Counted from the first letter of the stretch, positions 3,213 to 64,000 are shown. The stretch: 64,000 nt of DNA from Yuukianura sp. NJ FZ-2021 (GCA_046563655.1 CM102287.1:9548001-9612000), one strand, 5' to 3'. Translations and numbers: made by a program. The notes: a model not told the origin generated them from the sequence alone.

Positions 3213-3359
3213 AGGCGGATTTTTTGAAAATGAAAAGGAAATGTTGTTTTGAATATTGAAATATTTTGGAAACTGAAATGTGCTCTTCAAAGGATCTTTT
3301 GATTTTTATATTTAAACTTTTCTTGTTAAATAAAGTTCAAACTATTCTACCAATTTAAG

Positions 3360-3778
3360 GGTTGAACACTTGAAATGTAGGCTGTACAACTAGCAACAGC
3401 TGAGGTGTGAAACCATTTAACTTATAGTTAGTTAATTATAACAAAATTAGTTTTGTTTACATTAGTTCTGTGCAGTTGAAATGTTAAAAAGGACGCCAAA
3501 GATCGTGACACCATCTCTTGTACCTATGATGAGAAACAAGTTTGAGGGTGGAGTAAGAACTAGTTGAAATAATTGTACCCACACATGGCACAACGTAGCC
3601 ACTCCGGTCATCTTTAGTGGCTACACTTAAGTGGCAACATGTGTAGCCACTTCAACCTGAGCTATGGTAAAGTGGCAACATACGTTGCTGCACAATTTAG
3701 CCACTTTTTGCAGCAAAGCAATAGAGTTACTTCATTTTGTGGCTGTTCCAACATTTTGTCTTAAGCCTTACTCCAACT
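3360..3778. repeat. Copy of the GTAGCCAC/GTGGCAAC-rich dispersed repeat family
   Basis: Begins GGTTGAACACTT (compare GGTTGAATAACTT at 54779). Contains several GTAGCCAC/GTGGCTAC/GTGGCAAC motifs (3590-3720) and ends TTAAGCCTTACTCCAAC. Confidence 0.4.
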
Positions 3779-6447: not shown

Positions 6448-7282
6448 TTAACCGTGGTATCCACCATATCCTGCAAATTTTGAAAAAGTAATTTTGAAAT
6501 TTTGGTTTTCAGAAAATGGAAATGAAGAAATTTCGATTTGGACACTTACCACCATATCCACGACCGAATCCTCCTGAGAATTTGAACAAAAATTAACTTC
6601 AAAAACTAATTTTTTGACTTAATTTTTTGTATTCTTGGTCATTTATTACCGAATCCTCCGTATCCACCTCCGTAGCCACCGAATCCACCTCCGTATCCGA
6701 GTCCGTAACCACCTCCGTAGCCTCCGTAACCGCCATAACCACCTCCGTAACCTCCATAACCACCTCCGTATCCGAGTCCTCCGTAGCCGAGTCCACCATA
6801 TCCGCCGTATCCACCATAACCTCCATAACCACCTACAGAATTTGTATAAAAGTTAGATTTTTTATCCAAATTTTGAAATTTTATAAAATTCTTTGAAAAT
6901 CGGCTTTTAAAAAACTGAAACGTTGTTTAAAATCTCGGAGGATTTCGGAAAAGGAACTGCCCAAAGAAAAACCAAATGGCTCATTTACCATAACCTGTTA
7001 AACAAATCAAAGAAAAATCATGAATTTCAAAATAGTTCAAAAATTGAAGATTTTTGAAAGATTTTTAAAATTCGTTTTTCTGAATTTGCGAATTTCTTAC
7101 CATAAAGTCGGCCTTCAGCCGTTTGCAATTCCTCCTTCTTCTCTTCGGCAGCAAAAGCCAAAGCGGCGAATCCGAAGAGAGCAAGAGCGATCTAACCAAA
7201 AAATGTTAAATTTTAAAATTTCCAAAAACTGAAAATTTTTTAAATTTTGAAATTTTGAAATTCTTACAACGATCTTTGCCAT
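6448..7282 (-). CDS. Secreted glycine/tyrosine-rich (GGYG-repeat) protein, about 113 aa; cuticular or antimicrobial-peptide-like
   Basis: Exons 7268-7282, 7101-7191, (6989-6994), 6650-6832, 6550-6573, 6448-6470 with canonical splice sites give signal peptide MAKIVIALALFGFAALAFA, acidic pro-segment AEEKKEELQTAE, then GGYG repeats ending GYHG*. AATAAA on the minus strand at about 6273-6278. Confidence 0.88.
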
Positions 7283-7332
7283 TGTTGTTTGGTTTGGTTT
7301 GTTAGTTGAGATAGAACTGTGAATTGATGAGT

Positions 7333-7367
7333 GAATGATTTGCTGGAGACTTGATGTTGTTTTTATA
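7333..7367 (-). promoter_or_regulatory. TATA box plus initiator of the Gly-rich gene
   Basis: Minus-strand TATAAAA at 7361-7367, with a TCATT initiator-like sequence about 30 nt downstream and about 50 nt upstream of the ATG. Confidence 0.6.
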
Positions 7368-10300
7368 CTAAACGAAGGACCCCCTTAGCCCCCCAAAACA
7401 AAAGGTGAGGTACTTAGGTTATGTTACTCACTTGGCACGGTGCACGACCGTGTCACTGGCACCAAGTCACCCCCCACCCCTTGCGAACCCCCCCCCCCCT
7501 CTAAGTTGAAGGGGGGGGGGTTTAGCTGCCAGTGCCAAGGAACCCCCCCCCCCTACATTAGTGTACCCCCACCGTATCAGCCCTTCACTTTACTGTTAAT
7601 TAGATCAACGAAATCGTAAGTTTTTTTCTGTGACAGGCCGTAACCAATTTGAGTCAATTACATGTGTGCAAAAACAGTGCAAATTTTTTGCACAAAACAA
7701 CAACAACATTACTCAAATCATCTGATGTGCATCTCAGAGTGGTTGGAGTGAGCGACATTGTCGCAAAAAAAATATTGCAAATATTGCAGTGAAACGGATG
7801 CGAACGCCCACGCCTAAAGCTTGGCCCTTTGCCATTTTGCTGTGACTTGTTTTGAATTGCGAAAATTTGCGAAAAAGACAAAACGCCTTTTTGCGAAAAT
7901 ACGAAAACCACCCCCACTGCAGCGTTGATGTTGCGTATGCCGGCGGAATTTCAAAGTAGTTAGATCAGAATTAGAACAATGGAAATTAAAAGGTGCTCTT
8001 AATGAATTTCCGGTAGGACAGTCACACACACTTGCAAAAAAGTTTGCAAAAGTTGTATTTCCAAGTGCCAAATTTTGATAGTACTTTGCAAAATTAACAA
8101 AAACGGAAGTATTACTATAATAAACTTTAACTGCACTTAAGGCGTCAAAACATTTTGCAAAAAATATGCCCTTAATTTTTTAATTGCCTCCAAAGTGTTT
8201 GCTCTCTCGATGTCAAAAGTTGCTCAAATTTGCGAACCGTATCGCAAAAATTATTGCGAATTTCGAGGAATTGATTTAGTTCATTCCGAGCTTTCGTTAC
8301 GTCACGAATTTGTGCAACAATGCAAAAGTTTTTGAGGTTGATCTCAATCTACAATTTCATGACAAGCAAAAAATTGCAATTTTTGTCATTTTTGCACAAA
8401 ATTGAAATTTTTGTCATTTTTGCAAAAAGTGACGAAAATTAGTTTGACCTTTGAGAGTACAAGAATCAGAGCTGAAAATGTAATTTTATGGTCATTTTGT
8501 GGTGACAGCACGAGGCAACAACATACTCAGGTAGTATACTCCGTAAGTGTGCAAATATTTTGCGAATGGCAATGGGGAATTTTGCAAATTGTGCAAAAAT
8601 GGCCCTGTAGAGACACAAAAACTAACACGGTTCAATTGTTGGTTGTTGAAATCCTTCCTTCATATCCGCTTTGTGTCAAAAATTGACCAGTTAGGTACAG
8701 TGTCACGTTTGTTAACTTAAGAACTAAAGATTTAATCCTATCTTTTGAACAATTTTTAGAAACTGAAATTGGGGGAGTGGAAAAGGTCATGACCTTGTGA
8801 AAGGTCACGACTTAATTTTGGTCTTAGTAGGGTGTAGTTAGGAAAGTGTAGTCAAGTGGAGTAAAAGTTTCGTCACGGTAGTAAAAACGTATTAAAAAGT
8901 AAAACTAATTGAGACACTGCCTGGAACCATTGTCCTTTCAAAGCCACTCACGCTTAGATTGACGCGTGCAAATTAATTTGCAAAAAAGTTGCTCAAATGT
9001 GCGAAAATTTTTGCACAAAACTTTTGATTTGTATGCTGCTTAAAACCGCCAAGCGGAACTTTTTCCAAAATTATTCCCTGCTGCATCATCGGGTTTAAAG
9101 TTTACAATCAAATATCGCCCTATTGAATCGATAATGAATTAATATGTATAAAATAATACAAAAAATAATTAAACAAAATTAAGTTTTTTTCATAAAAAAA
9201 AGTTCCTTGAAGTTGTAAAGTTTCTGACAAGTTAATTTTTTGATTGGTTGCACATTGAAGTGTCGTTTTCCTTCTGGACTGATAGGAGATCGACAACCTT
9301 TGCTAAAATTTCGCAATGAGTCGTAAAAAACAAAAGCAGTGCGATTAAAAATCTGCATAATTCTAATACTTTTTTGCATTCGTTTTGCTTTTGGTCCCTG
9401 AGCAAAAAGAAATGCAGGAAACAGCAAACATTTATCAATTTTTGAAGTCCCTCTCTCTTTTTCTCGTCCATTGAAAATGGGAAGGCTTGCCAATTTTTTT
9501 GCAAATTGCAAATCTTTGTCAGAGGCCATCAGTAGTCCTCATACGCTCATCGTGATCATAATGGTCATCGCATTTTCTTTTGTGCAAAAACGATTTTTTG
9601 CAAATTGGAGATCATTGACACGCGGCTTCCTTCTTTTTTTCTCCTTCGGTTTTTTTTTTCATTTGCCAAATTTTTTGGCGTGTTCCTTGCTCTACTTTTT
9701 TTTTTCAAAAAAACCAAAAACTTTCTGCTCAATTTGTTTCAATCGAATGTCTTACATAAGTTCAAACTAAAAAGCAAATGCCGGAATTGCATTTAACGTA
9801 GTGCATACATGCGACAGCTGTTGCTGATTATGAATTATGATTGCAGAATTATTTGCAAAATCTCAATTTGCAAAATTTGTTATTTAGTTCAAGACAAAAA
9901 GAAAATGAGACAGACGCGAAAAGGAGGAGCTGCACGACGTGCTTCCAATTTCTAATTGTTTGAAGTGTTTGTTTCATTTTTTGTTTACGAATAGGTTAAT
10001 AACCTAACCTGAATAGGTTATGACTTATGTTGGACTAACTAATGTTAACATAACGAATTGGCATAGAATTTGGAGTAGATTTTTTCCCTAGGTCCAATTT
10101 CTCACGTCTCCTGTTAACTTTGAAGGGAGTAATTAGACCTAATGGAAATCAAGATTAATTCAATTGGAAATTATTGCAAACCCCAATTTGCAAAATAACA
10201 ATTGTTTGCTCAAAAATCCTTTCAAATGTAGCACAACTCCCACAATTCATAAACTTCGTACTACCAAAGTCCTTCTCAAGTGTAATTTAATAATCGAATG

Positions 10301-10754
10301 ACTAAACTAGTTAATTAAACATCTTAATTAATCGTAGTTAATCGACCTTTCACCACGATTTAATCTTAGATCTTGAAGGCTCCTATTCATAAGTCATGAT
10401 TTGTAACAATTTTCGGACTTTTTAACAAAAAAAAACGCAAAAAAACTGAAAAATTTTTCAGTTTCTTGAAGCATTAAAACTTGTCCATATTTCGGGAAAT
10501 TTTTATAACTTTCAAGTCTATTGGCAATTGCTTTCCAATAACTTTCACTCGAAATTTTCCAAAATTTTGATTTCGACATACATTTTGTTTTATGCATGAT
10601 ACCTGCTAACCTATGGCAAGTAACTTGTATAAGTTTAAAAAAATTTAGTTTTTCATATCGGAGCAATATAATTTATTACAAATCTTGGCACAAGTTATTT
10701 TATAACCAAAAAATACTCAATTTTTCTGAACTTTGAAGTAAATCGCTGCAGCGA

Positions 10755-11465
10755 TTAATCAGCCGCTGCAAAAAGGGCAGCGACACAACAAACGCAACAA
10801 GCCATTAGGATTGAAATTGCACCAAAAACGATAACGATCAATACAACCCAGAAAGCAAAGAAGAATAACGTAGGATGACAGTAGTGACTGACAGCGGGAG
10901 TAACTACTGCAGCAGCAGCAGCAGCAGTATCAGCCACCGCAGTATCGTTTCCAGCCACTTCTCTCTTGACAATTTCAGCGTCAGCATTTGAAGTCGCTCC
11001 AAGGTCAGCCGCTTCTTGGTCCACTTCAAGTACTTTGTAAGTAGACAGTACTTGGACACAGAGGTAGACAAATACAATGAATTTGATCAATCTAAGCAAG
11101 TTGAGACATGCGTACTTGAAGTCCTCTGAGTCGTGCCCTTCTTCTGTCGCTTGATATCGAACGCGCCCTTCGAATATTGAGAGGACCAGGGCAAGGGCCC
11201 CTGAGATGATAAGGGTCATGGCCAAGTGGGGGGACCCTGGACAGAACGAAGCGTCGTAGTACAGACTTCCGATGACAATGGCAGCGATAGAAACCATGTT
11301 GAATATCGCCAGCACAATCAGCGATGCTACGAGCGAGCAGCACATTGCTGTGAGTTCAGCCAAACATCCTTGGTCCTTCCGTCGACTTGTTGAAGCCTTG
11401 GGCTGCTTTTTTCCCAGAAGTGGGTCACGCTTGGACTGGCCTGCCTCGCTTTCAACGTCTGACAT
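10755..11465 (-). CDS. TMEM272-like four-pass membrane protein, about 236 aa, single coding exon
   Basis: Four hydrophobic segments, CP..PHLAMTLIISG after TM1, YCHPTLFFFAFW before TM4 and a Cys-rich C-terminus (ACCVCC). ATG of MSDVESE at 11465. Confidence 0.75.
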   Translation of the reverse strand: MSDVESEAGQSKRDPLLGKKQPKASTSRRKDQGCLAELTAMCCSLVASLIVLAIFNMVSIAAIVIGSLYYDASFCPGSPHLAMTLIISGALALVLSIFEGRVRYQATEEGHDSEDFKYACLNLLRLIKFIVFVYLCVQVLSTYKVLEVDQEAADLGATSNADAEIVKREVAGNDTAVADTAAAAAAVVTPAVSHYCHPTLFFFAFWVVLIVIVFGAISILMACCVCCVAALFAAAD

Positions 11466-12339
11466 TTTCGAAATTTCTAAATTCAAAAAATTTCCAAAAT
11501 CGATAATTTTAGATTATTGAATCTCGAAATTTTAGTTGTTACAGAGGAAACCTCAGGAAAAACTGAAAGAATTAAAAAACCGTTTTCTAGAGGGGGTTAA
11601 TTTGGTAAAAAGTTAAGTGGCGTTTTAACTCTTTAATAATTTAAAAAGTTGAATTTGGGATTTGATGACGAAGCTTACCTTTCAAAACTCAAAAATTTCT
11701 TGGTGCAAAAATTTCATCAACTTTTTCCAAATTTTGAAAAAAGTTGGTTTTCTTCAAAAAGCGATGTTCATCCTTAAAGTTCCGGAGTGCCAATGTTTAA
11801 AAGTAGAGTCAAAACGGAACTGACGAAAAGTCGTCCATAATCCAAAAGTTTTGGTTCCTGCGGCTCATACGAATTTTTTGATCGCTTCAATGCTGATTGT
11901 ATGTAAGATTGTGTTAATTAACCGCTGCGGTTAACATTGTATGCTTTGAGATGGGTAAAGCAGCGATGCGGTTAGTTCGAGCGGTTAGTCACAGCATAGA
12001 GATTTCAGCGTCTCAATCGCTGCTCAATTCAGCGATTAAGATTAAGTTATTCATTAGTAATTGTGATCTTTAACAGTTTAGCGTCTTTGTTTTTGATCGT
12101 AGAGATTTTAGTTTTGGAGCAACTTTAACCGCAGGAGGAGAAGATTATAGTGGCATAAGTTAAATTTTGATTAGGTTAACTGTTTAATTTTAAATCGCAG
12201 TTAACTAATTCTTGTCTAAGTAAAGATTAAATTGTGGCCAAGAAAAAGACAACATGCATAGTGCATCAGTATTCTACCGCCACTTTGGAGTAGATCAAAG
12301 CCTAATCTTGTGGCATTTCGTTTGTCAATTCATGGAGTT

Positions 12340-14927
12340 CTACGTTCCGCGGAGAAAAAACGGGAGGGTGTCCAGTGGCGCTGGAAAGTCACGGATCCAT
12401 GCAGGTCCTTCGTATGTTTGTCCAGTATGTGCCGTCCATGTGCCATTGGGCAAGTAGATGTCACGTGACACTGCACCTCTCTCCAGCACTGGAGCCACCA
12501 GCAGACCATCTCCTACCAAGTACTCTGCAAAGGAAACACCACGCATTTCAAAATTTTGAAATTCTTCAACTTTGAAATTTTGAAACTCTTGAACATTAAA
12601 ATTTTGATAGATGTCAACTGTGTACCTGAGTCGATGATGAGAGCTTCGGGGTCAGTGGGGTCAGCCCACCAAAGTGGTCGGTTGATTGGACTTCCGTCGT
12701 CAACTGATTGCTGAGCTGCGCTGATCAACAAATCGCTGTACGTCTTGCGAAGACTCAGAACTTCTTGGGCAATTTCAACTACCTGCGAAGTCAAATTCGA
12801 AAAAACTTCTCAAATTGAGTTCAAAATAAAATTTTGAAGTATTGAAAATACTGCAAACATACTTGAGTGTCATTGTACTTCCAAGGAGCCAATGAAAATT
12901 GGAATGCTGGCATGAAAGTGTTGAGTTGCAACCAGCGAATGTACAATTCCTTTGACGGTGGTATAATTCCATAGTTATTTCCGCCAATCATGTCGGGCAA
13001 AACAAACGGATATCCGGTAATCCCGAATTGAAAAGTTGCTGGCAGAATGGACCGAAGTCCATTGTCGTGGCCCCACGAACTACTTCTGTCCAGAATTCTC
13101 GTAAAGATTGGCAAGTTCTGAAAAATCCCAAATTTAAAAAATCGAAAGAATTTTAAAAAATCCCGAATTTTTCAAAAATCCAGCTAACCTGAGTCTTCCA
13201 GCCAGTTCTGACTTCAACTAATCCACCAAAAGCGGCGAGAGCGTTGACAAAAGCAGTTGAGTATTCATTGGGATGCTTAGATCCGAAATCAGGCGACACT
13301 GGAAGCCAACTGGTTTCTCCAGCATCAAATTTAAAAGAGTCAATTCCAGTAGCGTTTCTCAAGGAATCTAGTCTGGAGATAAACCAATTCACGGCTGTTG
13401 GATTTGTAAAGTCAATGATTCCAGCGTTATCTCCTTGCCACCAGTCTGTAATGCCCGTTTCTCGCTTGGTACCCTTGACGAAGTACCCATACTTCATAAC
13501 ATCATTAAATAGTGGACAATCTGCAAAAATGAAAAGAAAATTCGAAATTTTGAAATCCGAAATTCAAAATGTAAGAAATTTCAGAAATTTTAATGCTGAT
13601 TTTACCCATATTGATGAACGGATGAACCCACAGAGTTGTTCGAAATCCCATCGAGTTCAGCGTCTCCACCATACCTATGTTCAAAATTTTGAACGTTAGA
13701 ATTTTCCAAAATTGGACATAAAAGTACTGTCGAGATTTGGAAAAAGTGCCTTTAGGATCTGGAAACTTGGTTGGATTGAACTGAAGATCTCCGTAGCAAG
13801 TTTCCCAGTCATCGTCGATTTCAATGTGAGAATTTTCAGTGAATCCTTCAGCGATTATCCTTGTAGCAAAGTCAATGACTTTTGCTTGGTCAACGTCTTC
13901 CTTATACTCGACCCAAGTACTCCAAAATGGCAGTGTGAGCATGCCAGTATCTGGAATGGCTGATGGCCTTGGAATTACTCCAGACTGAATCTGGGCTTCA
14001 TGAACTTCCTTCATATTATTTCCCATGCAAATGTGGTAACTCATGTGCAGAACATCACGAGGTTGGTAAGGAGTCTCCGGTTTGGCAGCAAAACAAACTC
14101 GTTTCACTTCTTCTTCCTTGTTCCAACCTAGAAAGTCAAAGGTCAAAGGTCAAGTTTAATTTTTCGAAATTTTTAACTTTTTCAAAAGTTTGAAGTTATA
14201 CTCATGAATAGGGGAACGTCGTCGTCCACTTTGATAGAGACGCCACTGGACACCAGAAAGTACGGTTCCAGGAGAGGGCCATATTCAGCACCAGCGAAGG
14301 AATCCGAAGTGACGAAAGGCGCTTCCGGTCTGGTATAATTTTCTATGGGCCAGTACTGCTCAAACGTTTCGGCACCACCGTACCTTTTCAAAAGACGAAA
14401 TTTGAAATTTTGAAACTTGAAATTTTGAAATTTTGAAATTTTCTGTACTTTGCTGAGAAATACTTACCAGTGGTGACCTGGAATGAGGTCAAAGCAGTCT
14501 TCTAGTTTCTTTGCGTAGTTTGACGTCCAGATGAGGTGTGAACAGCCTTCTGTTGTGTCGTTGATTTCCAAACGTGCGTAGTCTCCGTATTCGTAGCATT
14601 CGGAATAGTCCGACTCTGGACACGAGGATGCCATTCCAACTGCATTTGGCGCTGCCAGGCCCAAACTACCCGAAAGCAGCACGTTTCCTGAAAAAATGCA
14701 AAAATTTTCAAAAAATCCTGCTAAAATTCTGAAAATTCTGCCAATAATTCTTTGTTTTTGTGTAAGCTCTAAACCGTACCATCCGCTATGACTGTCATTA
14801 CGAGTGCATTGTCTTCAGCCTTTGAGCCAAATTGAAATTGGAACTTTGCCGGATGACCTTTGACCTCTGCCAAGATGAAACCGCATAGCAAAAAGAAAAA
14901 TGCTTTGACAGCACTTTCAGCCAACAT
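12340..14927 (-). CDS. MYORG: GH31 glycosidase, MYORG/tobi-like (copy A), multi-exon, secreted/signal-anchored
   Basis: Exon ORFs give WSTW, IEIDDDWETCYGDL, TLWVHPF, FKFDAGE (nucleophile Asp), RILDR (acid/base Asp), LPDMIGGN, RWLQLNTFMP and LLVAPVLE..RDIYLP. Hydrophobic N-terminus from ATG 14927; stop at 12340. Confidence 0.9.
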
Positions 14928-15401
14928 TTTGAAAAAAGGACGCTGATTCTCTCTGCTCGTTTGACGTTAAAATTCAACTGAAATGAAGCTAATGGTTAGA
15001 CTGTGATTAAATCTTCCTGATTTTACTGGAGATGAAGCTGAATTCTCATCACTTTTTTTTGAAAAGCAAGATTATTATTTGGTGATTTTAACTTTTGTAA
15101 CGATAAGTTAACTAGAAATGCTTGAGAGTGGACAGTTACAGAGCCAAGTGTTGAAAGTGTCAATTGATACTTCACAAACAACAGGATTCTGTGTAACTGG
15201 AGCAAAAGAGACAACACTTCAAAATGGAAGTTTCACCTTGAGCAGATGGAGTGCATGTTTAAATCGTGATTAGGCTAACTGTTTAATATAAAATTCGCAT
15301 TTAACTAGTTCTTGTCTAACTAATGATTAAATTGTACTTAAGAAAAAGACGACATGCATATTGTATTGTATTCTACCGTCACTTTTTAGTTAGATCAAGA
15401 C

Positions 15402-18242
15402 CTAATCTTGTGGCATTTCGTTTGTCAATTCATGGAGTTCCAGCGTTCCGCGTAGAAAAAACGGGAGTGTGTCCAGTGGCGCTGGAAAGTCACGGATCCA
15501 TGCAGGTCCTTCGTATGTTTGTCCAGTATGTGCCGTCCATGTGCCATTGGGCAAGTAGATGTCACGTGACACTGCACCCTCTTCTAGAACTGGAGCCACC
15601 AAAAGAGCGTCTCCTACCAAGTATTCTAGAAATGAAAAAAAGGGTTTCGAAATTTTGAAATTCTTGAACTGTAAAGTTTTGAAATTCTTGAACATTAAAA
15701 TTTTGATAGATGTCAACTGTATACCTGAGTCGATGGTGAGAGCTTCAGGGTCGGTGGGGTCAGCCCACCAAAGTGGTCTGTTGATTGGACTTCCGTCGTC
15801 AACGGATTGTTCAGCAGCGCGAATCAACAAATCGCTGAAAGTCTTGCGCAGACTCAAAATCCCTTTAGCAATTTCGATGACCTGCGAAATCAAATTCAAA
15901 ATTACTGAAATTCATCAGCTTGTCACAATTTTGTTTCAGAAATTCGAATTCTTCCGTGTCAAAAAGGAACCTATGTTGAACTTGAAGGAAAAGTCAAATA
16001 TTTCTTGGGAAATCATTGTCCGGAGTGTACGAGAATTTTGGGGGAACTTTTTTAATGTTAACGTTTTAAATTTTGAAATTCTGTAGAACCTGAGTGTCGT
16101 AGTTCCATGGAGCCAATGAAAACTGGAATGCTGGCATGAAAGTGTTGAGCTGCATCCACCGAATGTACAATTCCTTTGACGGTGGTTCTCCATTAAAGTA
16201 ATTCCCACCAATCATGTCTGGCAAAACAAACGGATATCCGGTAATCGCAAATTGGAAGTTTGTCGGCAGAATGGATCGAAGTCCATTGTCATGGCCCCAT
16301 GTACTAGTTCTGTCCAGAATTCTCGTAAAGATTGGCAAAGTCTGAAAATCAAATCCAAAATCTAGAATTTCAAAACTCGCGATTTTTCAAAACTCTTGCT
16401 TACCTGAGTCCTGAAGCCACTTCTGACTTCAACTAATCCTCCAAAAGTAGCGACAGCGTCAACATAGGCAGTTGAGTATTGATTGGGATGCTTTGTTCCA
16501 AAATCAGGCGACACTGGAAGGTAACTGGCTTCTCCAGCGTCAAATTTATAAGAATCAATTCCAGTATAGTTTTTCAATGCCTCGAGCCTGGAGATCCACC
16601 ATTTCACGGCTTTTGGATTTGTGAAATCAACGATTCCCGCGTTTTCTCCTTGCCACCATTTTGTAATGCCGGTTCTCCCTTTGGTACCCTTGACCAAGTA
16701 CCCACGCGTCATAGCTTCAGCAAATATAGGACAATCTGCAAAATACCAAAAATTCAAAATTTCAAAAGCAACTTTCCTTTATCAATTCATCAATTCAAGA
16801 AAACTTTGAAACGCTTCTTCGCCTATCGTTTTTTCTGAAATTTACGGTTTCTGCAAAAAAGAATGAGCTGAAAGTTTTTCAGTTGGTAAAAAGTAAGTTT
16901 TTACCAAGGTTGATGAAGGGATGAACCCACAGTGTTGTTCGAAATCCCAGCGATTTCAGCGTCTCCACCATACCTGTGTCAACAATAATGTTCAAACGTT
17001 AGGATTTAAAAAATTCAAAATTTTGTAAGATTTGAAATTTTGAAAACCTGCCTTTAGGATCTGGAAACTTGGTTGAATTGAATTGAAGTTCTCCGTAGCA
17101 AGTTTCCCAGTCATCGTCGATTTCAATGTGAGAATTTTCAGTGAATCCTTCAGCGATGATTCTTGTAGCGTAGTCAATGACTTTTGCTTGGTCAACGTCT
17201 TCCTTGTACTGAACCCAAGTACTCCAGAAAGGCAATGTGAGCATGCCAGTATCTGGAATGGCTGATGGCCTTGGAATCACTCCAGACTGAATCTGGGCTT
17301 CATGAACTTCCTTAACATTATTTCCTAAGCAAATGTGGTAACTCATGTGCAGAATGTCGCGTGGTTGGTAAGGACTCTCCGGTTTGGCAGCAAAACAAAC
17401 TCGTTTCGTTTCTTCACCTTTGCCCCAGCCTAGAAAGTCAAAGGTCAAAGGTCAAGTCTAATTTTTCGAAATTTTAATTTTTGAAATTTTGAAGTTATAC
17501 TCATGAATAGAGGAACGTCGTCGTCCACTTTGATAGAGACGCCACTGGACACCAGCCAGTATGGTTCGATGACGCTGCCGTAAGGGGAGCCACTGAGCGA
17601 GTCGCCAGTGATGAAGGGCTCTTCCGCTCTGGTGTCATTTTCTATTGGCCAGTGCTGAACATGCGTTTCTCCACCGCCATACCTGTTGAAAATTTAAAAA
17701 GAAGAAATTTCGAAACTTGAAATTTTGAATTTTTCTGTACTTTATTGAGAAATGCTTACCAGTGGTGACCTGGAATGAGGTCAAAGCAGTCTTCTAGTTT
17801 CTTTGCGTAGTTTGATGTCCAGATGAGGTGTGAGCAGCCATCTTTTGTGTCGTTGATTTCCAGACGCCCGTAGTCTTTGTATCGGTAACATTCGGAGTAG
17901 TCCGTCTGTGGACATAAGGATACCATTCCAACAGCATTTGGCATTGCCAGGCCCAAACTACCCGAAAGCAGCACTTTTCCTGAAAAAATTCCAAGATTCT
18001 CAAAATTTTCTATTTTCTTTCCGAAATTCTCAAAATGTTGCCAATTTTTTGTTTTTGTGTAAGCTCTAAACCTTACCATTCGCTCTGACTGTCATTTGGA
18101 TTGCATTTTCTTCAGTATTTGAGCCAATTTGGAATTTGAGTTTTGCCGGAGCCGGATGACCTTTGACCTCTGCCAAGATGAAACCGAATAGCAAAACAAC
18201 AAAGTAGAACAAAAATGCTTTTACAGCATTTTCAGAGTACAT
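15402..18242 (-). CDS. MYORG: GH31 glycosidase, MYORG/tobi-like (copy B, tandem paralog)
   Basis: Same exon layout and motifs as copy A (YKFDAGE, RILDR, LPDMIGGN). ATG at 18242 (MYSENAVKAFLFYFVVLLFGFILA); stop at 15402. Confidence 0.9.
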
Positions 18243-55627: not shown

Positions 55628-55823
55628 TCATCTTTTTCCATTTTCCCTTAACCTAGTCAACACAGCCCTTAAGGGACACTCATCAATTACTAATCAGCAC
55701 AAAGCACTAACATCCTCATGTAAGGGTCTACAAAGGCTCCCCCTCAAGTCCCCCTGTCAACTCACCAATGTTCACAGAATGTCACAAATTGTTTTTATTT
55801 TTTAGTTTTTGCATTAAAAAGTG

Positions 55824-55827
<4 letters not shown>

Positions 55828-55861
<34 letters not shown>

Positions 55862-58800
55862 CACATAAAATTTTTATTTATCGAATTTTTTCACAGTCAC
55901 CTGCCAAAGGCAGGTTGAGAAAAGAAGTAGGATTTAAGTTAGATTATAATATGAATAACTCATAAAGATCTTTTCCTGAGGGTAAGGTTCCCAAGATTGA
56001 GCAGGAGTTTCCGCGTTGAACAGCTAGGCTTATGCGTTGTAGGAAGAAGGTCGAGGCTCGTTTATCTCCAGATGCTTCTGACAGCCGATGTCCGATTTGT
56101 TTTAGTAGACGAAGACCTTCGGATCCGAATACACCTGATGTCTCGACGGCAATGATGGATACGACGAAGCGAGATTCTAGGTCACGATAGAGATGATGTT
56201 TGTGTGTCTCTGCTAATTCGGCTGCATGACCATAGCGGGAAGACGATGTCGAGAGGTAGGAATTTGCATAAGTGTCACGGCAGGTAAAGTCCCAGCAGAG
56301 GCAGCGTCCTGAGCTCCAAGGAATGAGAGTAACACCATCTGGCCGTTTGCCATCGGATCTGCTGCAGCCGACAGGTTCTTTAATTGAAGGAAATCCAGCG
56401 GTTTGTAATGCTCTGAAGATTATGTCGTTGACTGAGTTGTGACGAGAGTGTCTTCCGGCGCTACGCTTACAGCTTAAACCGTGGAGACCGTTACTTGACA
56501 CCGGAGCACCGCACGAGCAGATATGAGGTTGGCATATATCAGTTCCTAGGCGAAGAGCACAAGAAATCCTAAAAGATTCGTCCGAAAGTAGAGTTCCAAG
56601 TTGTCCGGAGGGAATTGCGTGTAACCAATCTCCAGAATGTGGAGCAGCGGCAGCCAGTAGTCTTGCTTTGTCGATAAGGGTTGAAGAGTTCTGAACTAGG
56701 GAAGAAGAAATTTGCTTAAAGACTTGAATTTCCCAGAGGTTTTGAGATTTTTTGTCCTGTGGAATAACGAAGCCCAATTGAGACCAGTTGAACAAAGCCA
56801 AATCCATTGAATAGTCGAAGGGTGACAGGGAAGACGGCAGAAATGTAGAAATTAGCTCCGCACAACTATGGACTGATGCCAAAAACGAAAATGTAGCGCA
56901 GTCCTTAGCGTGGCGAACTCCTAATCCGCCCAAGTTCACCGGTAGACTTAACTGAGACCAAGCGTGTGAAGACAAAGTAGAATTGAGAATCGATTCCATC
57001 ACTGCACGTAGTGCACAGTCGTATTCATCGAGAAGGTCGGTTTCCAGAAACGAAGGAGCACATCTGAGAAAATATAGGAGTCTTGGGGTGGAAATTGAAG
57101 CCCGAAGCAGGTAGAACGCAATGTGGGCAGGTATGTCCGACAACTTAGATGAGAGTGACTTGAAGTTTTCTGTTTTGCATTTGAGAATCCGACGAGACGA
57201 TTCTTTGAAAAGAGGCGCCCCTAGAAGTTCAGCTTGATCATAATCAGGGAAGATGATGTCTGGAGAAACAGATTGGAATGATTGGACGATTGAACGGGAC
57301 TCAATTGCTTCTGCACTTAGAATGATGACTTCACATTTTCTTAGGTTAAGTTCTAGTCCAAACGAAGAGGCTTCTCTTTGGATGTATTTGAGATTTTCGA
57401 GAACGACATCCGGAGTATCGGCAATCGTTGCGTCATCTAAATGCCAGATGTTGACATCAGTGGATAATGAAGAGGCCAATTGGTGGATGGTTAAAGCGAA
57501 AAGAGCAGGACCAAGGGGATCCCCTTGTTGCACTCCTAGTTTCGATTTGATGCAAGCGGAGTCGTAGTAGAGATCTGAATCGTGCGAATAAGCTTCAGAG
57601 ACGAATTTGTAGAAGTCTGGAAGTATGGTCTTCACAATGTCCAGCATACGATCTCTTCTAATTAAGTTGAAGGCATTGCGAAAGTCGATCTTGAGTAGAA
57701 CCTTGGCAGAAACATGGTTGGCATTACAGAAGATTCTGGCAGCGTGGGCGACGGCTTCAGCACCATTCTTGATTCCAACGCCAACTTGGATCGGGCTTAA
57801 GGTTGAAGTAATGACATTCAACGAGTGAGATAGGATAAGTTTAGACACGAGGCGTCTCCAAGTAAGGCCGATTGCGATAGGACGAATGCCTCCTTTCTTC
57901 TTTTGGATTGCTAATAGAGTTGCGCCAAAAAAAATTCGTCTCACTTCATCGGGAAGAGAACCATTTGTAATGAAGTTACACAATCCAGAAACTGATGTTA
58001 GAAGAGCTGCTCCTTCATCGCCTGAGGACTTTGAAGTTAGTTCCTTTAGAATCTGTGGACGAAAAGAGTCCAGGCCTCCGGCGGATCCATTTGGGAATGA
58101 CGAGATGGCTTTGATGACGTGACAGTTTTCAAAGATAACCTCAGATCTCGGAGGTGCGGCAGGAAACGAGGTTGGTAGTGGATGATCGGGATGCAATTGG
58201 TGGAGAATGTTTAAAGTATCAGAGTCTTTGGAGGCTATGCAATCTTCGGAGACCAGGATTCGAACTGCACCGCGTATATCCCCGTCGGCTAGTTTAGATT
58301 GAATGACCTTTGAGGAGTTACAGTGATGTGAGGACGGGTGATGGCCACGAGAGAATTGCTTGAATTGATGATGGGAGATGCTTGCAGGCGCCTCAGAAGT
58401 GATACGGCTAGCGTTTGTCTTCACCCATTTGGTTAGATTTGTGACAGCATCGTCTTTTGACGGAATGGGAAAAACTTGGTAGGGGAAGTAGAATAACTTT
58501 GCCCAAGAATCTGTAGAGTTGTGCTCTATTGCTTGGTCGATGATGGTGGACAGGGCAGAGGCGGTCGTTCTTCTTGCTCCTTTTGGAATGTGTTTGAGTG
58601 TGGACGTAGATTTTCTTAAGTCAGCAAGCTTTAGCCCAAGAGAAGTTGTAGAGATATCCTCATTGGAAGGAGCGGACCAAGTGATGTCGAAGTAAGATTG
58701 TTGAGAATGTTTGCGTCCGCCGGCTCGTGTTTTGGTAATGTTTGGAAAAGCTTTTAATAGTTTCAATCCAATTGTCGCGTCGGCTAAAGGTTTGATCTTC

Positions 58801-59495
58801 ACATCAGAGCAAAATGAATGGTATTTATCTTTTAGATCTTGTTTCTTGATCAAAGCTCCAGAAGCCTCCTGAATGTTGTTCTTGATCCAGTCGTCAGTTA
58901 GTTTAGAAATTTGTGATTTTCTTAAGCACCCAGTGGATGACGTAGTAGATGACGATGATGTAGATGATGAACCACTGAACTCCAATCCGCAGTCATCGGA
59001 TGATGACCCGATTCCGGGGTTCTCCGTGGTTGTGTCCAGGGTGTTATCACAAATAAAATTGATCGTTGAATTTTCTGGAAAATTGAGTTGGATGTTTGTT
59101 TCACAACTTCCGAGGTATCTCAACGGTCGTTCGGTTGCCATGAAGAGCAGAAAAGGTTGTCTAAATCCGTGAATTTTCAAGATTTAAAGTTGAATTTGAT
59201 AATTTGTTGACAAGGTAACGCTTAGCAGCACAAGTAGTTGTTTGTTTGAAAACGTCCTTCGAGTTGTCCTGAGATGAGAGACGACTTGGACGATGAAGAT
59301 GGCCGGGTTGACAGATATCCGGAGACAAATTGACCAAACAAGTATGTCAAAAGATGCGCCAGAGATGGAGGAACAGTTTGATACCAAAAAACCTCGATAA
59401 TACTCGCAATTTCTATTTCGGTAAATGGATAAGCAGGGAGCAACTTTTGCGTGTCGTCAAAACAAACAAACGAAATTGAAAAGTGGAAACGAACG
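55828..59495 (-). mobile_element. Full-length non-LTR retrotransposon, RLE type (CRE-like clade)
   Basis: 31-nt poly(A) tail (T run 55828-55858), AATAAA at 55873-55878, single long RT+RLE ORF and TSD AAAAGTGGAAA (55817-55827 / 59496-59506). The two flanks rejoin to match the empty paralogous lipase 3' region at about 62190-62450. Confidence 0.93.
55944..59141 (-). CDS. Retrotransposon ORF: RFX-like winged helix + reverse transcriptase + CCHC knuckle + PD-(D/E)xK restriction-like endonuclease (about 1065 aa from the first ATG)
   Basis: GSAGGLDSFRP, KKKGGIRPIAIG..RRL, QVGVG..GAE, KIDFRNAFN, GVQQGDPLGP, WHLDD, LELNLRKCE, LPVNLGGLG, CSC..H..C, RHN, EP..RPDG..D..AE..K..Y. No stops or frameshifts. 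First ATG at 59141; the frame is open from 59183. Confidence 0.92.
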   Translation of the reverse strand: MATERPLRYLGSCETNIQLNFPENSTINFICDNTLDTTTENPGIGSSSDDCGLEFSGSSSTSSSSTTSSTGCLRKSQISKLTDDWIKNNIQEASGALIKKQDLKDKYHSFCSDVKIKPLADATIGLKLLKAFPNITKTRAGGRKHSQQSYFDITWSAPSNEDISTTSLGLKLADLRKSTSTLKHIPKGARRTTASALSTIIDQAIEHNSTDSWAKLFYFPYQVFPIPSKDDAVTNLTKWVKTNASRITSEAPASISHHQFKQFSRGHHPSSHHCNSSKVIQSKLADGDIRGAVRILVSEDCIASKDSDTLNILHQLHPDHPLPTSFPAAPPRSEVIFENCHVIKAISSFPNGSAGGLDSFRPQILKELTSKSSGDEGAALLTSVSGLCNFITNGSLPDEVRRIFFGATLLAIQKKKGGIRPIAIGLTWRRLVSKLILSHSLNVITSTLSPIQVGVGIKNGAEAVAHAARIFCNANHVSAKVLLKIDFRNAFNLIRRDRMLDIVKTILPDFYKFVSEAYSHDSDLYYDSACIKSKLGVQQGDPLGPALFALTIHQLASSLSTDVNIWHLDDATIADTPDVVLENLKYIQREASSFGLELNLRKCEVIILSAEAIESRSIVQSFQSVSPDIIFPDYDQAELLGAPLFKESSRRILKCKTENFKSLSSKLSDIPAHIAFYLLRASISTPRLLYFLRCAPSFLETDLLDEYDCALRAVMESILNSTLSSHAWSQLSLPVNLGGLGVRHAKDCATFSFLASVHSCAELISTFLPSSLSPFDYSMDLALFNWSQLGFVIPQDKKSQNLWEIQVFKQISSSLVQNSSTLIDKARLLAAAAPHSGDWLHAIPSGQLGTLLSDESFRISCALRLGTDICQPHICSCGAPVSSNGLHGLSCKRSAGRHSRHNSVNDIIFRALQTAGFPSIKEPVGCSRSDGKRPDGVTLIPWSSGRCLCWDFTCRDTYANSYLSTSSSRYGHAAELAETHKHHLYRDLESRFVVSIIAVETSGVFGSEGLRLLKQIGHRLSEASGDKRASTFFLQRISLAVQRGNSCSILGTLPSGKDLYELFIL

Positions 59496-59647
59496 AAAAG
59501 TGGAAAAGTTTTGAAATTTTTAAAATTAAAACGCTACCACCATGACTGTAGCGTTTGTTGTCAGAATTCGAAAAATTAAAAAAAATTGAGATGCTTTGTT
59601 GAAATGTTGTTGTTTTGTGTGAGGTCAAAGGTTATGACGTTGTTGAT

Positions 59648-61559
59648 CTACTCGCCTTCCGGAATAGTCAAGTAAAGTTTTCCTCTTGCTCTGAAATTTC
59701 ATACATCAAAATTTCAAAATTTGAACAAAAACTTGATTTTTTCGAAGTTATTGTATCAAAAACTTACGTGAAATCAATGAATTCCCCCATTTTTACGCCA
59801 AGGTCACTACGGCAAGTGCCTCTCTTGAAAGTGTCATAGTCTGCACAAGGATAGCCCATGTACGCCTTCCCCAGAATAGTCTTGCTGTAGTACTCGGGTG
59901 CCTTGAGGTGGCTGCAGACTCCTGCAAATTTGCAAATGACATTATTTTTGCAAAAATTTGCAAATTACCAAATCCATGCAAATTAAATTTGCAAAATACT
60001 GTAACTTTTTAAGTGTAACTAGGTGGGACTTACCCATGACTTCTCCAAGCAGTAGAAGCGAACAACCAGGTTGATGCTCTCCTACAATTTCCAAAATTGA
60101 ATTTTGCAAATTCAAATTTTGTGTTAAATTTTGAAATGTTCATGATGGAAATATAGTCTTTTGTTAAGTCAAAGGTCACTGACCTCCGTTGGGGTAAAAA
60201 TCCACATGACCCGATTCAATTGCAGTTCCAAATGTCGTGATTTTTGTTCCCATGTTAGTGTGAATCACATCTACAAAAGCACCATCTCCAGGGTCAAGTC
60301 GACTTTCAAGTGACACCGAGGGGTCACTGAATCCTGGACCAGCAGGGTCAAGGCCTAAGGTCAAATTAATCACGAATTAGTTAGTTAATTACTAGTTAAT
60401 TAGTTAAACTAAAAGTACTTTGAAGTTAGCTTGACCTTTACCTGTGACATGACCGACTTGCTCACCCAGAAATTGAGCAGCATAGTACGATCCGATGCCA
60501 GCGACATGCGCACCGAGACTGAAACCAACGATGTGGACATTTGATAGACTTTTGACGTAGTTGTCAGTGGGATTACGCAGGAAGATGAGGAGTTCTGCGA
60601 CATAAAGTCCCACTTTCTCAGTGTTATTTGCAGAACGGAAGTAGTTGACCTGACGAGCAAGGTCATGCCAGTCAACAAATATTAAGTTCTCTGGTCTCCC
60701 TGCTTCGATGTAAGCTAAACAAAAGTTAAAGTTAAAGTTATGTTACATTAACCTTATTGGGCTAGTAACAGCTTGACCTTTGACCTCTGAGACTAACCTC
60801 GGATGATTTCTTTCGTTGCGGACAATGGACTGTTTGTAGAATCTTCTGTGTATCCGTGAATCACTATGATCGTATTCTCTTCTTTGTTCCATTTGGAGTT
60901 GGTGAAAGTGCGCAGGTCACTTGGGGTCAAAACTTGGTCTTTGTAGTTACTGAAAATCAAAATTTTGAAAAATTTAATTTTGAAATTTTAGTATGACCTC
61001 TGTCCTGGGGTACTTTTTGCTGTTTTTGCCTTATTTTTTTGCCATTTTCTCTTACTTGTTACTATTTTTCTCTAACTTTTTGCTTCTTTTGTCTCACATT
61101 TTGCTGACTCTGCTTTACTTTTTGCTGTTTTTTCTTACTTTTCCCCGTTTTTGTCTAACTTTTTGCTGCTTTTGTCTTACTTTTTGCTGTTGTAGAAGTG
61201 GAATTGGACATCATGTACTTCCGCCCCCAGATTGAAAAGTCCCCATCCCTTGGTGAAGTCCACAGTGTCCTTGAGGGTCAAGGGGTCAAACTTGAGTCCA
61301 GAAAGTCCAGGGAGTGAGGGGACTGGAAGCACTGGAATGTCCAGCAATCCTCCAGCAGCATCACTACTCCCGGGTAGTTTCGGAGTTAAGTTAAACTGCA
61401 ACGTCAACGAATAAAATATTTGCAGAAATTAGTGTTAAAACCCAGGAAATTTTAACAGTTCAGGAATTCCTAACAGTCGTGGTTTACCGCAATTGAAATG
61501 TTGATGAAAACGAAGTTCAACAAACCACTGGAGTAAATAATCCAAATAATGCGTGACAT
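59648..61559 (-). CDS. Pancreatic lipase / phospholipase A1 family lipase (copy 1), secreted, multi-exon
   Basis: [24 protein letters not shown] (Ser), GLDPAGP (Asp), [24 protein letters not shown] (His). Hydrophobic N-terminus from ATG 61559; stop TAG at 59648 after LTIPEGE. Confidence 0.88.
61011..61190. repeat. About 21-bp degenerate minisatellite in a lipase intron (CTTACTTTTTGCTGTTTTTGT-like) x about 8
   Basis: Repeating TACTTTTTGCTG core. A shorter array of about 4 units sits at the same intron position in the paralog (about 63805-63880). Confidence 0.7.
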
Positions 61560-62445
61560 GGTTGACCTTGACCTCATGACCCCACGGTGACAAATAACAG
61601 AGCAGCTACTTTGCTTTCTTTTTTGTAAAATGAGGCTTCTGATTGTGAGCTTCCTTGGAATTGACTGAAACTGAGCCTCAAGAACACAAAAGTTATGGAT
61701 TTTATAGACTGAAGACAAAGTCAAGGTCAAGGGACGAGTAGAATGACCTAGTTTGTAACTTTTTATGACTTTTTTCGTTTTTTCAACAAAAAATTTGTAG
61801 GTCATTTGAATTTCAGACTCTTGACGTGGTAGCTAAAGTGAGATTTTTCAATTGGAGTTTCAGTCAAATTGAAGCTAAATGTGTCTGGCATTGTGGAACA
61901 GCAGCACATTACGAATGATTTGCAATTTTCAAATTCTGCATTTGCAATTTGCAACTTTTATGAAAATTTAAAAAAAGCAGTTTTTTTGAAGTTTAAAAAC
62001 GGCACAGAGTTTTACATTTTAACCAAATCGCTACTGTTGTTAAACAAGCAGTTAGATTGATGCAACTACCCCAAGCCACGCCCACCCGCAAGGAAAAGCG
62101 TCATCAGTTTCATATGACATTTTGTTTAACTTTCAATGAAAAAAAAAACTGTTCCAAAAAACTTTTTTCAAAAAAAAACTGAAATTACTAATTAGCACAA
62201 ACTAAGATCCTCTTGTAAGTTTCTACAAAGGCTCCCCCCTCAAGTCCCCTTTGTCAAAAAAAGCTCACAAATTTCATAAATAATTGTTTTTATTTTTTAG
62301 TTTTTGCATTGAAAAGTGAAAGTTTCGATTTTTAAAATACCATGCCATAAGCTCTAGTCGTAAAAGTTAGACAACCAGAAAAATTGAAATGCGATCTTGA
62401 AATTTTGTTGTTTTCTGAGCGGTCAGAGCTTATGACCTTCTTGGC

Positions 62446-64000
62446 CTATTCGCCTTCAGGGATAGTCAAGTAAAATTTTCCTCTTGCACTGAAATTTCAC
62501 ACAAAATTTTCAAAATTGGAGTAAAAAGTAATGTTTTTCCAGTTGAAAAATCGTTTCCGATCAAAAACTTACGTGAAATCAGTGAATTCTCCCATTTTGA
62601 CCCCAAGGTCACCACTGCAAGTCCCTCTCTTGTAAGTGGCATAGTCCGCACAAGGATGGCCTAAGTACACCTTCCCCAGAATAGTCTTGCTGTAGTAGTC
62701 GGGTGCCTTAATGTGGCTACACGCTCCTGCAAATTAGCAAATCACATCATTTTGGCAAAAAATTTGCAAATTACGAAATAAAGTCATTTTTGCAAAAAAT
62801 TAGCAAACCTATGCAAATTTTTGCAAAATGCTGCAAAAATAACTTTTTAACTGCAAAGAACTGAAGGGACTTACCCATGACCTCTCCAACGACAGCGAAT
62901 GAACAACCAGGTTGATTCTCTCCTGGAATTTCCAAAATTCAAATTTTGTGTTAAAATCTTAAATTTTCATGAAGGAAAGACAGTTTTTGTGAGGTCAAGG
63001 TCACTTACCTCCGTTGGGGTAAAAATCCACATGACCCGATTGTATGGCAGTTCCAAACGACCTTACGCTGGTTCCCATGTTAGTGTGAATCACATCTACA
63101 AATGCACCGTCTCCAGGGTCAAGTCGACTTTCAAGTGACACCGAGGGGTCACTGAATCCTGGACCGGCGGGGTCAAGGCCTAAGGTCAAGTTAATCACTA
63201 ATTAGTTAAAGTTAAGATGAAGTTAAAGTTAAGTTGACCTTTACCTGTGACACGACCAACTTGTTCATTCAGAAACTGAGCAGCATAGTACGATCCGATG
63301 CCAGCGACATGCGCACCCAGACTAAAACCTACGACATGCACATCCGACAAATTTTTGACGTAGTTGTCAGTTGGATTGCGTAGAAAGATGAGTAGTTCTG
63401 CGACATAAAGTCCCACTTTCTCAGTGTTATTTGCAGACAGGAAGTAGTTGGTCTGACGAGCAAGGTCGCGCCAGTCCACAAAAATCAAGTTTTCTTGTCG
63501 TCCTGCCTCGATGTAAGCTAAACACAAAGGTTAAAATTTAGGCTAGATAGTTAAAGTTAGATTAAAGTTTGACCTTTGACCTCTGAGACTAACCTCGAAT
63601 GATTGCTTTCGTTACAGACAATGGACTGTCGGTAGAATCTTCTGTGTATCCGTGAATCACTATGATCGTTTTCTCATCTTTGTTCCAATTGGAGTTGGCG
63701 AAAGTTTGCGGGTCACTTGGGGTCAACACTTGCTCTTCGTAGTTACTGAAAATCAAAATTTTCAAAAATTAGACTTGAAATTTTAGTTTGACCTTTTTGC
63801 GTTCATACTTTCTGCTGTTTTTCTTACTTTTTGTTGTTTTTGCCATACTTTTTGCTGTTTTTGACTTACTTTTTGCTGTTGTAGTAGTGGAATGAGGTGG
63901 CATTGTGTACTTCCGCCGTCACATTGGACAGTCCCCAGCCCTTGGAGAAGTCTATAGTGTTCTTAAGGGACAAGGGGTCAATCTTGAGTCCAGAAAGTCC
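62446..64000 (-). CDS. Pancreatic lipase / PLA1 family lipase (copy 2, tandem paralog; 5' end beyond the window)
   Basis: Same exon structure and motifs as copy 1 ([25 protein letters not shown]); stop at 62446. Confidence 0.88.

Follow-up and report, generated by a model that had tools for sequence, protein, structure and literature searches.

The stretch of DNA analysed here, referred to as the window, comprises 64,000 nucleotides of Yuukianura sp. NJ FZ-2021 (GCA_046563655.1 CM102287.1:9548001-9612000), with positions counted from its first letter. At about 55828-59495 its minus strand carries an element of about 3.67 kb, whose single open reading frame (ORF) joins an RFX-type winged-helix domain to the reverse transcriptase (RT) and endonuclease of a retrotransposon. 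The frame is open without interruption at 55944-59180 and encodes 1078 amino acids (P0001); from the first ATG (59139-59141) to the stop, the ORF spans 55944-59141, corresponding to residues 14-1078. The order of its parts is a disordered N-terminus (residues 1-83, as predicted in the full-length model), the RFX domain (residues 88-168), a helical linker, the RT, a CCHC zinc knuckle and a PD-(D/E)xK endonuclease. In the reading favoured here, the window contains an intact and young copy of an R2-like, poly(A)-tailed retrotransposon without long terminal repeats (non-LTR) and of the restriction-like endonuclease (RLE) type, and its anatomy as described below is virtually certain.

A first-pass annotation, made from the sequence of this stretch, had placed an RFX-type DNA-binding domain at 58677-58895 within the ORF of an RLE retrotransposon. 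The coordinates proved right: the coding strand is the minus strand, on which the interval reads exactly DDWIKNN...FDITW (residues 96-168 of the ORF), and its plus strand is full of stops. In Pfam searches the whole ORF matched RFX_DNA_binding (PF02257) at residues 95-167 (58680-58898, minus strand) with an E-value of 5.9e-10 and 40.1 bits, above the curated cut-off of 27, and the 73-residue piece alone gave 1.6e-11 and 45.1 bits. A sequence search of the PDB retrieved RFX5 (8zjr_M, E 8.9e-8) and the DNA-binding domain of RFX1 (1dp7_P, E 3.4e-3), both alignments being gapless over about 70 residues; the first-pass annotation had described a gapless alignment to the RFX consensus over about 72 residues. 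The identity to solved RFX domains in structural alignments was 23-28%. In the whole ORF, Pfam at E-values of up to 10 detected only RVT_1 and RFX and no zinc finger or Myb domain, which is in line with the earlier statement that the N-terminus holds neither a C2H2 finger nor a Myb repeat. At the same threshold neither the BCD/dimerisation domain nor RFX5_N was found in the ORF.

The fold of the domain was predicted for residues 80-185 from an alignment with six relatives (alignment A2). The resulting model (predicted local distance difference test, pLDDT, 77.9) consists of three helices and a β-hairpin wing, with residues 88-168 folded, and in the model of the full-length protein the RFX segment exceeded a pLDDT of 90. 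When the domain model was compared with the PDB by Foldseek, only two matches had E-values below 1e-3, namely RFX5 (8zjr_M, E 8.7e-5) and the RFX1 domain (1dp7_P, E 5.2e-4), each with a target-normalised template modelling (TM) score of 0.84 and a root-mean-square deviation of 2.0-2.1 Å. The third match was a generic winged helix at an E-value of 0.22. The RFX1 structure shows the domain bound to an X-box, and 8zjr contains RFX5 in a nucleosome-bound complex. The wing motif R..GGR..S..Y is retained in the domain of the element; in RFX1, the wing portion of the domain contacts DNA. Based on profile, pairwise sequence comparison and predicted fold, the domain is therefore an RFX-type winged helix, and as judged from its sequence the match of the segment to RFX is far beyond chance.

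All R2-like parts of the protein lie downstream of the RFX domain. RFX and RT are connected by a conserved helical linker (58281-58640, minus strand; residues 181-300) that includes the motif TLKHIPKGAR and, according to alignments A1 and A2 and the helices of the model, is common to family members with and without RFX; structural alignments with R2 start at model residues 213-216. The RT core (57321-57908, minus strand) matched RVT_1 at residues 425-620 (E 8.7e-16, Pfam) and contains the catalytic HLDD at residues 580-583, of which D582 and D583 are invariant in 66 sequences. The CCHC zinc knuckle (56469-56534, minus strand) is formed by C888, C890, H900 and C904, with C883 located upstream. 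C888, C890 and H900 are present in 58 of the 66 rows of the alignment and C904 in 57, the remaining rows being gaps from truncated sequences and one substitution each at C890, H900 and C904. The PD-(D/E)xK restriction-like endonuclease (56124-56456, minus strand) displays R913-H914, E935, P947-D948, D964, K994..Y998 and G1016.F1018, positions that are kept in nearly all covering rows of the same alignment (K994 and D964 each in 55 of 55). In the excerpted text of Govindaraju et al. (PMC4838377), the set of motifs CCHC, RH, PD, D and K..KY is mapped in the R2Bm endonuclease.

A full-length model built from the 66 sequences (pLDDT 88.4, predicted TM score 0.83) was compared with known structures. 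The first seven Foldseek ranks were all occupied by R2 proteins (E 1.4e-21 to 6.8e-18, 881-1009 alignment columns), followed by ORF2p of LINE-1 (long interspersed element 1) at about 1e-14 and then by group II intron RTs and Prp8. By VIA-align the top Z-score was obtained for LINE-1 ORF2p over the RT core alone (Z 27.4, 507 residues, model residues 193-825), and the R2 chains aligned over 687-754 residues with the nuclease included (Z 18.0-22.7), beginning at model residues 211-287, depending on the chain, and ending at 1070-1074. The RT, the CCHC knuckle, the endonuclease motifs and the structural matches to R2 together identify the ORF as that of an RLE-type long interspersed element (LINE), as the first-pass annotation had held. 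According to the excerpted PMC4838377, the domains of R2 follow the order zinc finger, Myb, basic region, RT, CCHC and RLE. The RFX domain, N-terminal to the RT, thus occupies the position where R2 proteins carry zinc finger and Myb, again as had been noted.

The borders of the insertion were defined by comparison with an empty paralogous site, which is located at the neighbouring lipase gene copy (62183-62779) and was identified by blastn of the region against the window, alignment and reading of the sequence. The left flank of the element (55685-55831) matches 62183-62325 with 82% identity and the right flank (59581-59973) matches 62379-62779 with 83%; the paralogues of the flanks lie 3-7 kb away in the same window, and the equivalent of the target lies around 62311-62322. 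The comparison bounds an insertion with an 11-bp target-site duplication (TSD) and a 31-nt poly(A) tail. On the poly(A) side (3'), the TSD is found at 55817-55827 (repeat family D1) and reads AAAAGTGGAAA on the plus strand. It is followed by the tail at 55828-55858 (minus strand, 31 T on the plus strand), a run that is missing from the empty site, and by a 3' untranslated region (UTR) at 55859-55943 (minus strand) with AATAAA at 55873-55878 on the minus strand, about 15 nt before the tail. On the 5' side the same 11 nt recur at 59496-59506 and pass into flank sequence shared with the empty site.

The 5' junction is complex, with about 33 nt separating the shared 5' UTR from the flank. Contigs derived from other copies in the public runs X1, X2 and X4 lose their match at 59457-59462, with loose ends at 59459 and 59462, and then diverge, and the common 5' end of the element is therefore placed there. 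The 5' UTR common to other copies accordingly covers 59142-59462 (minus strand), and 59463-59495 (minus strand, repeat family D7) represents a filler specific to this copy, which contains an extra 15-nt copy of the target, ATTGAAAAGTGGAAA, at 59475-59489 and five unmatched nucleotides, CGAAC. Irregular 5' junctions are common among elements that integrate by target-primed reverse transcription. We further observed that the extra target copy runs 4 nt past the duplicated 11 nt and has retained the G of the empty paralogue at a position that is now A in the left flank, before the 5-nt filler follows. No remnant of a PHD finger was detected in a three-frame translation of the 5' UTR.

The flanks and their paralogues belong to two tandem lipase gene copies on the minus strand, the element being inserted on the 3' side of the first of these in the same orientation. 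Pfam Lipase (PF00151) was matched on exons at 60179-60373, 63004-63198 and 63201-63527. The examined insertion site, a single site that was read directly, is AT-rich, non-repeat DNA. Rfam gave 0 matches across the 64-kb window; since it finds no RNA gene there, the target is not a ribosomal RNA gene (rDNA), nor a small nuclear RNA (snRNA), transfer RNA (tRNA) or spliced-leader gene. A 6-nt inverted repeat (CGCTAC / GTAGCG, separated by 10 nt) was seen at 59533-59554, some 40 bp away from where the element inserted; it is missing from the empty paralogue, is one position off the X-box half-site and may easily be a product of chance.

To follow the element beyond this locus, contigs of four public runs were compared with the stretch, part of which is present in six runs. 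In run X1, 180 contigs fell on the stretch, of which 76 were at least 99% alike, 43 were 95-99%, 44 were 90-95% and 17 were below 90%. The summed depth in this run was 1157-18202 inside the element versus 419 and 230 in the two flank bins, a depth that is not to be read as copy number. In run X4, which is labelled as a different organism, all 28 bins of the element were covered and both flank bins had a depth of 0. The element is multi-copy, and the public contigs indicate many near-identical copies. Contigs of other copies also span the RFX segment itself, one of them nearly identical (58576-58920, with 1 difference in 345 nt) and another diverged (58576-58931, with 45 differences in 356), demonstrating that the domain is present in other copies.

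Next to these copies, proteins related to the ORF were collected. A word-indexed search returned 67 homologues at E-values of up to 1e-3, the best being 52% identical; P0068 (a Ty1/copia-type pol) and P0069 (a weak diatom match) were excluded from Pfam scans and trees as unrelated. RVT_1 was detected in all 65 scanned homologues and RFX in seven of them (P0003, P0004, P0005, P0007, P0012, P0054 and the truncated P0055). In four of these seven a PHD finger lies upstream of RFX, and P0012 additionally carries SAP. The combination of RFX and RT was also found in P0070, retrieved by a word-index search with the RFX profile for longer proteins (four proteins returned, so that this search says little on abundance), and in P0084, P0085 and P0091, which together with P0003 make up four of the best 150 of 1888 proteins in an exhaustive profile search (E up to 1e-3). 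A search with the C-terminal half added P0228, P0231 and P0233, three of 109 new proteins. Hence, at least 14 RT proteins bear RFX besides the copy in the window. The PF02257 cut-off is passed by the window copy and 10 of 14 relatives and narrowly missed by the truncated P0055 (26.3 bits); the scoring covered all of these relatives except P0228, P0231 and P0233. In addition, fifteen short proteins from the exhaustive search match most or all of the RFX profile including the linker specific to the element, which suggests that they are N-terminal fragments of RFX elements.

In a FastTree phylogeny of the region from RT to endonuclease (70 rows, 789 columns), all 12 RFX rows fall in one clade of 20 with a support of 99. 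Among the other eight rows of this clade, two keep a degenerate RFX domain as detected by the family hidden Markov model (P0058, 7.3e-11; P0006, 7.4e-9), four are truncated upstream of the RT, and P0008 and P0011 have an N-terminal CCHH finger pattern instead, which was seen in the sequence and is not a Pfam match. RFX is thus present in 14 of 16 informative members, and identity over RT to endonuclease inside the clade falls to about 40%. Being common to the whole sub-lineage, the domain is not an accident of one copy. It has been inherited and conserved across a whole sub-lineage, so that both the other contigs and the lineage members speak against the domain being peculiar to the copy first annotated.

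In the remainder of the family, Pfam detects SAP, PHD, C2H2, OTU or Ulp1 in the N-terminal region; one PWWP match lies just below the Pfam cut-off, and one member has a C-terminal UCH. We noted separately that P0018, P0024, P0031, P0032, P0040, P0286, P0322 and P0334 contain OTU, a C-terminal UCH, Ulp1 or a PWWP-like segment, from which it follows that ubiquitin- or SUMO-protease and chromatin-reader modules recur in the family.

To address the origin of the RFX domain, a tree of 101 domains was calculated over 77 columns (IQ-TREE, quick mode). In this tree 26 of the 28 element-borne domains form one group together with one unlabelled fragment (support of 87 in the Shimodaira-Hasegawa-like approximate likelihood ratio test, SH-aLRT). 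It stands apart from both the RFX5-type clade (97) and the clade of BCD-bearing RFX1-4-type factors (95). The first-pass annotation had described the domain as closest to RFX5/7, and the pairwise PDB scores agree with this (35.6 bits for RFX5 versus 21.1 bits for RFX1), whereas the tree sets the element group apart from both cellular clades. The backbone of the tree is not resolved and it names no donor; its topology is compatible with a single, old acquisition, without proving it.

The element was subsequently compared with described systems. With R2 (R2Bm and R2Tg; 8gh6, 9nl3, 9dou, 8ibw) it shares a single ORF, an N-terminal DNA-binding module, the RT, the linker, the CCHC knuckle and the PD-(D/E)xK endonuclease, in which the motifs RH, PD, D and K..KY are the same, and R2 proteins are its best structural matches, with about 700-750 aligned residues extending up to the C-terminus. 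Unlike R2, it has an RFX winged helix in place of zinc finger and Myb, is inserted outside 28S rDNA and any Rfam RNA gene, and has a poly(A) tail and an 11-bp TSD; its identity to R2 proteins is only 14-17%, with a weak phmmer match (E 7e-4). The R2 clade proper was considered as a place for the element and set aside, as Pfam detects neither zinc finger nor Myb and the flank is the 3' side of a lipase gene instead of 28S rDNA. The features of RLE-type non-LTR elements as a group are all present, namely a LINE-type RT, a CCHC knuckle with a C-terminal endonuclease, and a tail, a TSD and an empty site.

The HERO, NeSL/Utopia, R4 and CRE clades likewise consist of RLE-bearing elements with a single ORF (PMC4640811, excerpted text). 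Many of the elements in HERO lack target specificity according to Kojima and Jurka (2015, PMC4640811), and the dispersed, apparently non-specific insertion of the present element is compatible with this description. NeSL and Utopia-1_TSP carry an extra Ulp1 protease according to the same excerpts, and Ulp1 also occurs in one distant member of the family studied here (P0040). For the label 'CRE-like' of the first-pass annotation, the only hint is the automatic name of one relative (P0257) after SLACS, a CRE-clade element; the automatic names disagree, another relative (P0070) being named after R2DM. In contrast to the RFX element, the HERO, NeSL/Utopia, R4 and CRE clades are described in the excerpted PMC4640811 with one to three N-terminal zinc fingers and none with RFX. 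As to the target sites of CRE and NeSL/Utopia, this copy lies outside spliced-leader, U2 or tRNA genes: no Rfam family was matched in the window, so that neither the spliced-leader insertion typical of CRE nor the U2 or spliced-leader insertion of NeSL/Utopia was found, and Pfam detects no zinc finger of the NeSL/Utopia kind in the ORF.

The non-site-specific BLAG elements of the cockroach (PMC7650587, excerpted text) are similar in that they are dispersed, R2-like arthropod elements of about 1000 amino acids without a Myb motif. They differ by their CCHH zinc fingers and a 'Blag' motif, the printed consensus of which shows by eye no likeness to the linker of the element, and no RFX is reported in the excerpts; the same source proposes recombination between copies as a source of variation in the N-terminal module. 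With cellular RFX factors (RFX1-4/6/8 with BCD; RFX5/7 with RFX5_N) the element shares the PF02257 domain family and fold, and it differs from them in lacking BCD or RFX5_N, in the separate position of the element-borne domains in the tree and in their lower Pfam scores. Membership among the cellular RFX transcription factors was rejected on the missing BCD and RFX5_N, the multi-copy state and the presence of a TSD and a poly(A) tail.

By analogy with R2, the element would move by target-primed reverse transcription: the endonuclease would nick the target, the poly(A)-tailed RNA would be reverse-transcribed from the nick, and cleavage of the second strand 11 bp away would give rise to the target duplication. 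Judging from its position and fold, the RFX domain would take over the role of zinc finger and Myb, binding DNA at or beside the target and positioning endonuclease and RT. The ancestor of the sub-lineage would have taken up the domain in a single event from a cellular gene of the RFX type. A role of the domain in DNA targeting appears somewhat likely on these grounds, and a new site specificity, as suggested in the first pass, may result from it. We consider the statement as a whole, an intact and young R2-like element in which a singly acquired RFX domain replaces zinc finger and Myb in positioning the machinery, to be probable.

Several observations weigh against this reading. At two family-conserved positions of the endonuclease the window copy is substituted, carrying L997 in place of the K found in 44 of 66 rows and F1018 in place of the W found in 38 of 66, which makes the activity of this copy uncertain. 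Support for a single origin of the element-borne domains in the tree (monophyly) is not strong (87), and two long-branch element rows fall in the RFX1-4-type clade. Pfam scores are lower for element-borne RFX domains (26-80 bits) than for cellular ones (about 83-126 bits), so the binding properties may have drifted. DNA binding by the domain, and any steering of integration, are predictions from position and fold. A scan with the X-box consensus detected no complete site anywhere in the window, and the 200 bp to the left and right of the insertion contain no half-site either; half-sites have a background of 0.36 per 200 bp, and one site says little. Finally, relatives combine RFX with PHD or SAP and others carry PHD, PWWP, SAP, OTU, UCH or Ulp1 instead, pairings and replacements that fit a role in chromatin binding or tethering as well as sequence-specific targeting.

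The absence of an X-box near the target and the pairing of RFX with chromatin-type modules make a chromatin or nucleosome tether the main rival. Under this explanation the anatomy is the same, and the RFX domain would serve as a general chromatin or nucleosome tether, or would bind the element's own 5' region, control its own transcription or handle RNA or protein partners. The best match of the domain in structure as well as sequence, RFX5, indeed comes from a nucleosome-bound complex (8zjr), relatives carry a PHD finger, and once SAP, directly upstream of RFX, other family members have PHD, PWWP or SAP alone, and the one insertion site lies in ordinary AT-rich DNA outside repeated genes without an X-box-like motif. 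This single site would, however, also be compatible with a degenerate or non-X-box specificity, and the retained R..GGR..S..Y belongs to the part of the domain that contacts DNA in RFX1. Moreover, the N-terminal module is the binder of target DNA in all characterised RLE elements, with the order of R2 domains taken from the excerpted PMC4838377. We therefore regard this alternative as unlikely, though it deserves serious consideration.

That the locus is instead a host gene, an RFX transcription factor that absorbed RT and endonuclease in the course of domestication, is very improbable. The automatic naming of two relatives from Folsomia candida (P0231 and P0233) as RFX proteins would be in line with it, but the poly(A) tail, the 11-bp TSD, the empty paralogous site and the multi-copy state contradict it, with many near-identical and diverged copies and with the element present without these flanks in a second organism; the ORF has no introns and no RFX dimerisation (BCD) or RFX5_N domain, and the catalytic motifs of RT and endonuclease are intact. 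A resemblance to RFX by chance, a chimeric assembly artefact or a read-through into a host exon, to which the low identity to solved RFX domains (23-28%) might point, can practically be dismissed, as it is contradicted by the curated Pfam cut-off being exceeded in the window copy and 10 of 14 RFX relatives, by the top two structural matches being specifically RFX, by the same position of the domain in at least 14 independent proteins from several sources and by the contigs of other copies that run through the RFX region.

Returning to the favoured reading of an R2-like element with an RFX domain in the place of zinc finger and Myb, a further-reaching version is conceivable, although we think it less likely than not. 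The element would then be a naturally re-aimed R2-like element, whose ancestor swapped its zinc finger/Myb reader for RFX, often together with PHD, so that integration would be steered by a different code within a family that exchanges its N-terminal readers freely. If true, the new targeting code might consist of a DNA motif of the RFX type, of DNA that is methylated or packed in nucleosomes, or of a histone mark recognised jointly with DNA. Besides exchanging readers (RFX, PHD, PWWP, SAP and C2H2), the family would gain deubiquitinase and SUMO-protease modules and would amount to a naturally assembled library from which target-primed reverse transcription could be given different targeting modules.

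RLE-type LINEs are the model for site-specific retrotransposition, and in all described RLE clades the target is read by a zinc-finger or zinc-finger/Myb module. A winged helix kept in this place over deep divergence indicates that the reader is exchangeable in nature. The RFX lineage shows that a new compact module, predicted to bind DNA, is compatible with an R2-like core, and the domain may give the element a different way of choosing its insertion sites. The use of RLE-type LINEs for transgene insertion is described in a 2026 review (PMC13580325, excerpted text). The finding opens no long-standing question.

Where RFX-bearing relatives carry an organism name, it is in every case that of the springtail Folsomia candida, which accounts for four records. 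OXA58286.1 carries the automatic name 'Retrovirus-related Pol polyprotein from type-2 retrotransposable element R2DM' and P0054 is an 'uncharacterized protein'. P0231 is automatically named 'RFX-like transcription factor daf-19' and P0233 appears in UniRef as 'RFX-type winged-helix domain-containing protein', both combining RFX with RVT_1; these two names are likely mis-annotations of retrotransposon ORFs. As such ORFs are publicly named RFX transcription factors, counts of RFX genes could be inflated. Family members without RFX include a sea spider record ('SLACS protein'), a moth record and the eukprot record Em0013g1006a. Full-text searches of the literature gave no description of an RFX-bearing retrotransposon, although Repbase Reports, Dfam or paper supplements could hold one. 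Where RLE clades are described in the excerpts (PMC4640811, PMC5678591, PMC7650587, PMC13580325), the text names zinc fingers, Myb, RNase H and Ulp1 and nothing further. The reverse case is described in the excerpts of PMC12129022, where a catfish RFX5 gene gained an L1 ORF1 exon. As far as searched, the lineage of RLE-type LINEs with an RFX winged helix is public in sequence under automatic names and apparently undescribed in print.

A number of minor observations were made in addition. The tandem genes of the pancreatic lipase family occupy 59796-61407 and 62379-63527 of the window on the minus strand, and the non-coding DNA between the two copies is about 82-83% alike. In the ESM Atlas only leads below 0.9 turned up; they pointed to RT clusters without a name, in which Streptophyta, Porifera, Arthropoda and Cnidaria were the commonest phyla, and were not used as evidence. 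In P0252 (Plutella xylostella, 'unnamed protein product') the RT of the family is joined to a glycosyltransferase family 4 domain (PF00953), which is probably a chimera of the gene model. The best-scoring matches to the RFX profile, P0071-P0077 and P0092, are proteins of 570-1089 amino acids from outside the window that contain no RT and carry three to five tandem RFX DNA-binding domains, with summed Pfam scores of up to 293 bits; we know of no previous account of this architecture. In a domain tree of three such multi-RFX proteins, the domains cluster with their positional counterparts from the other proteins.

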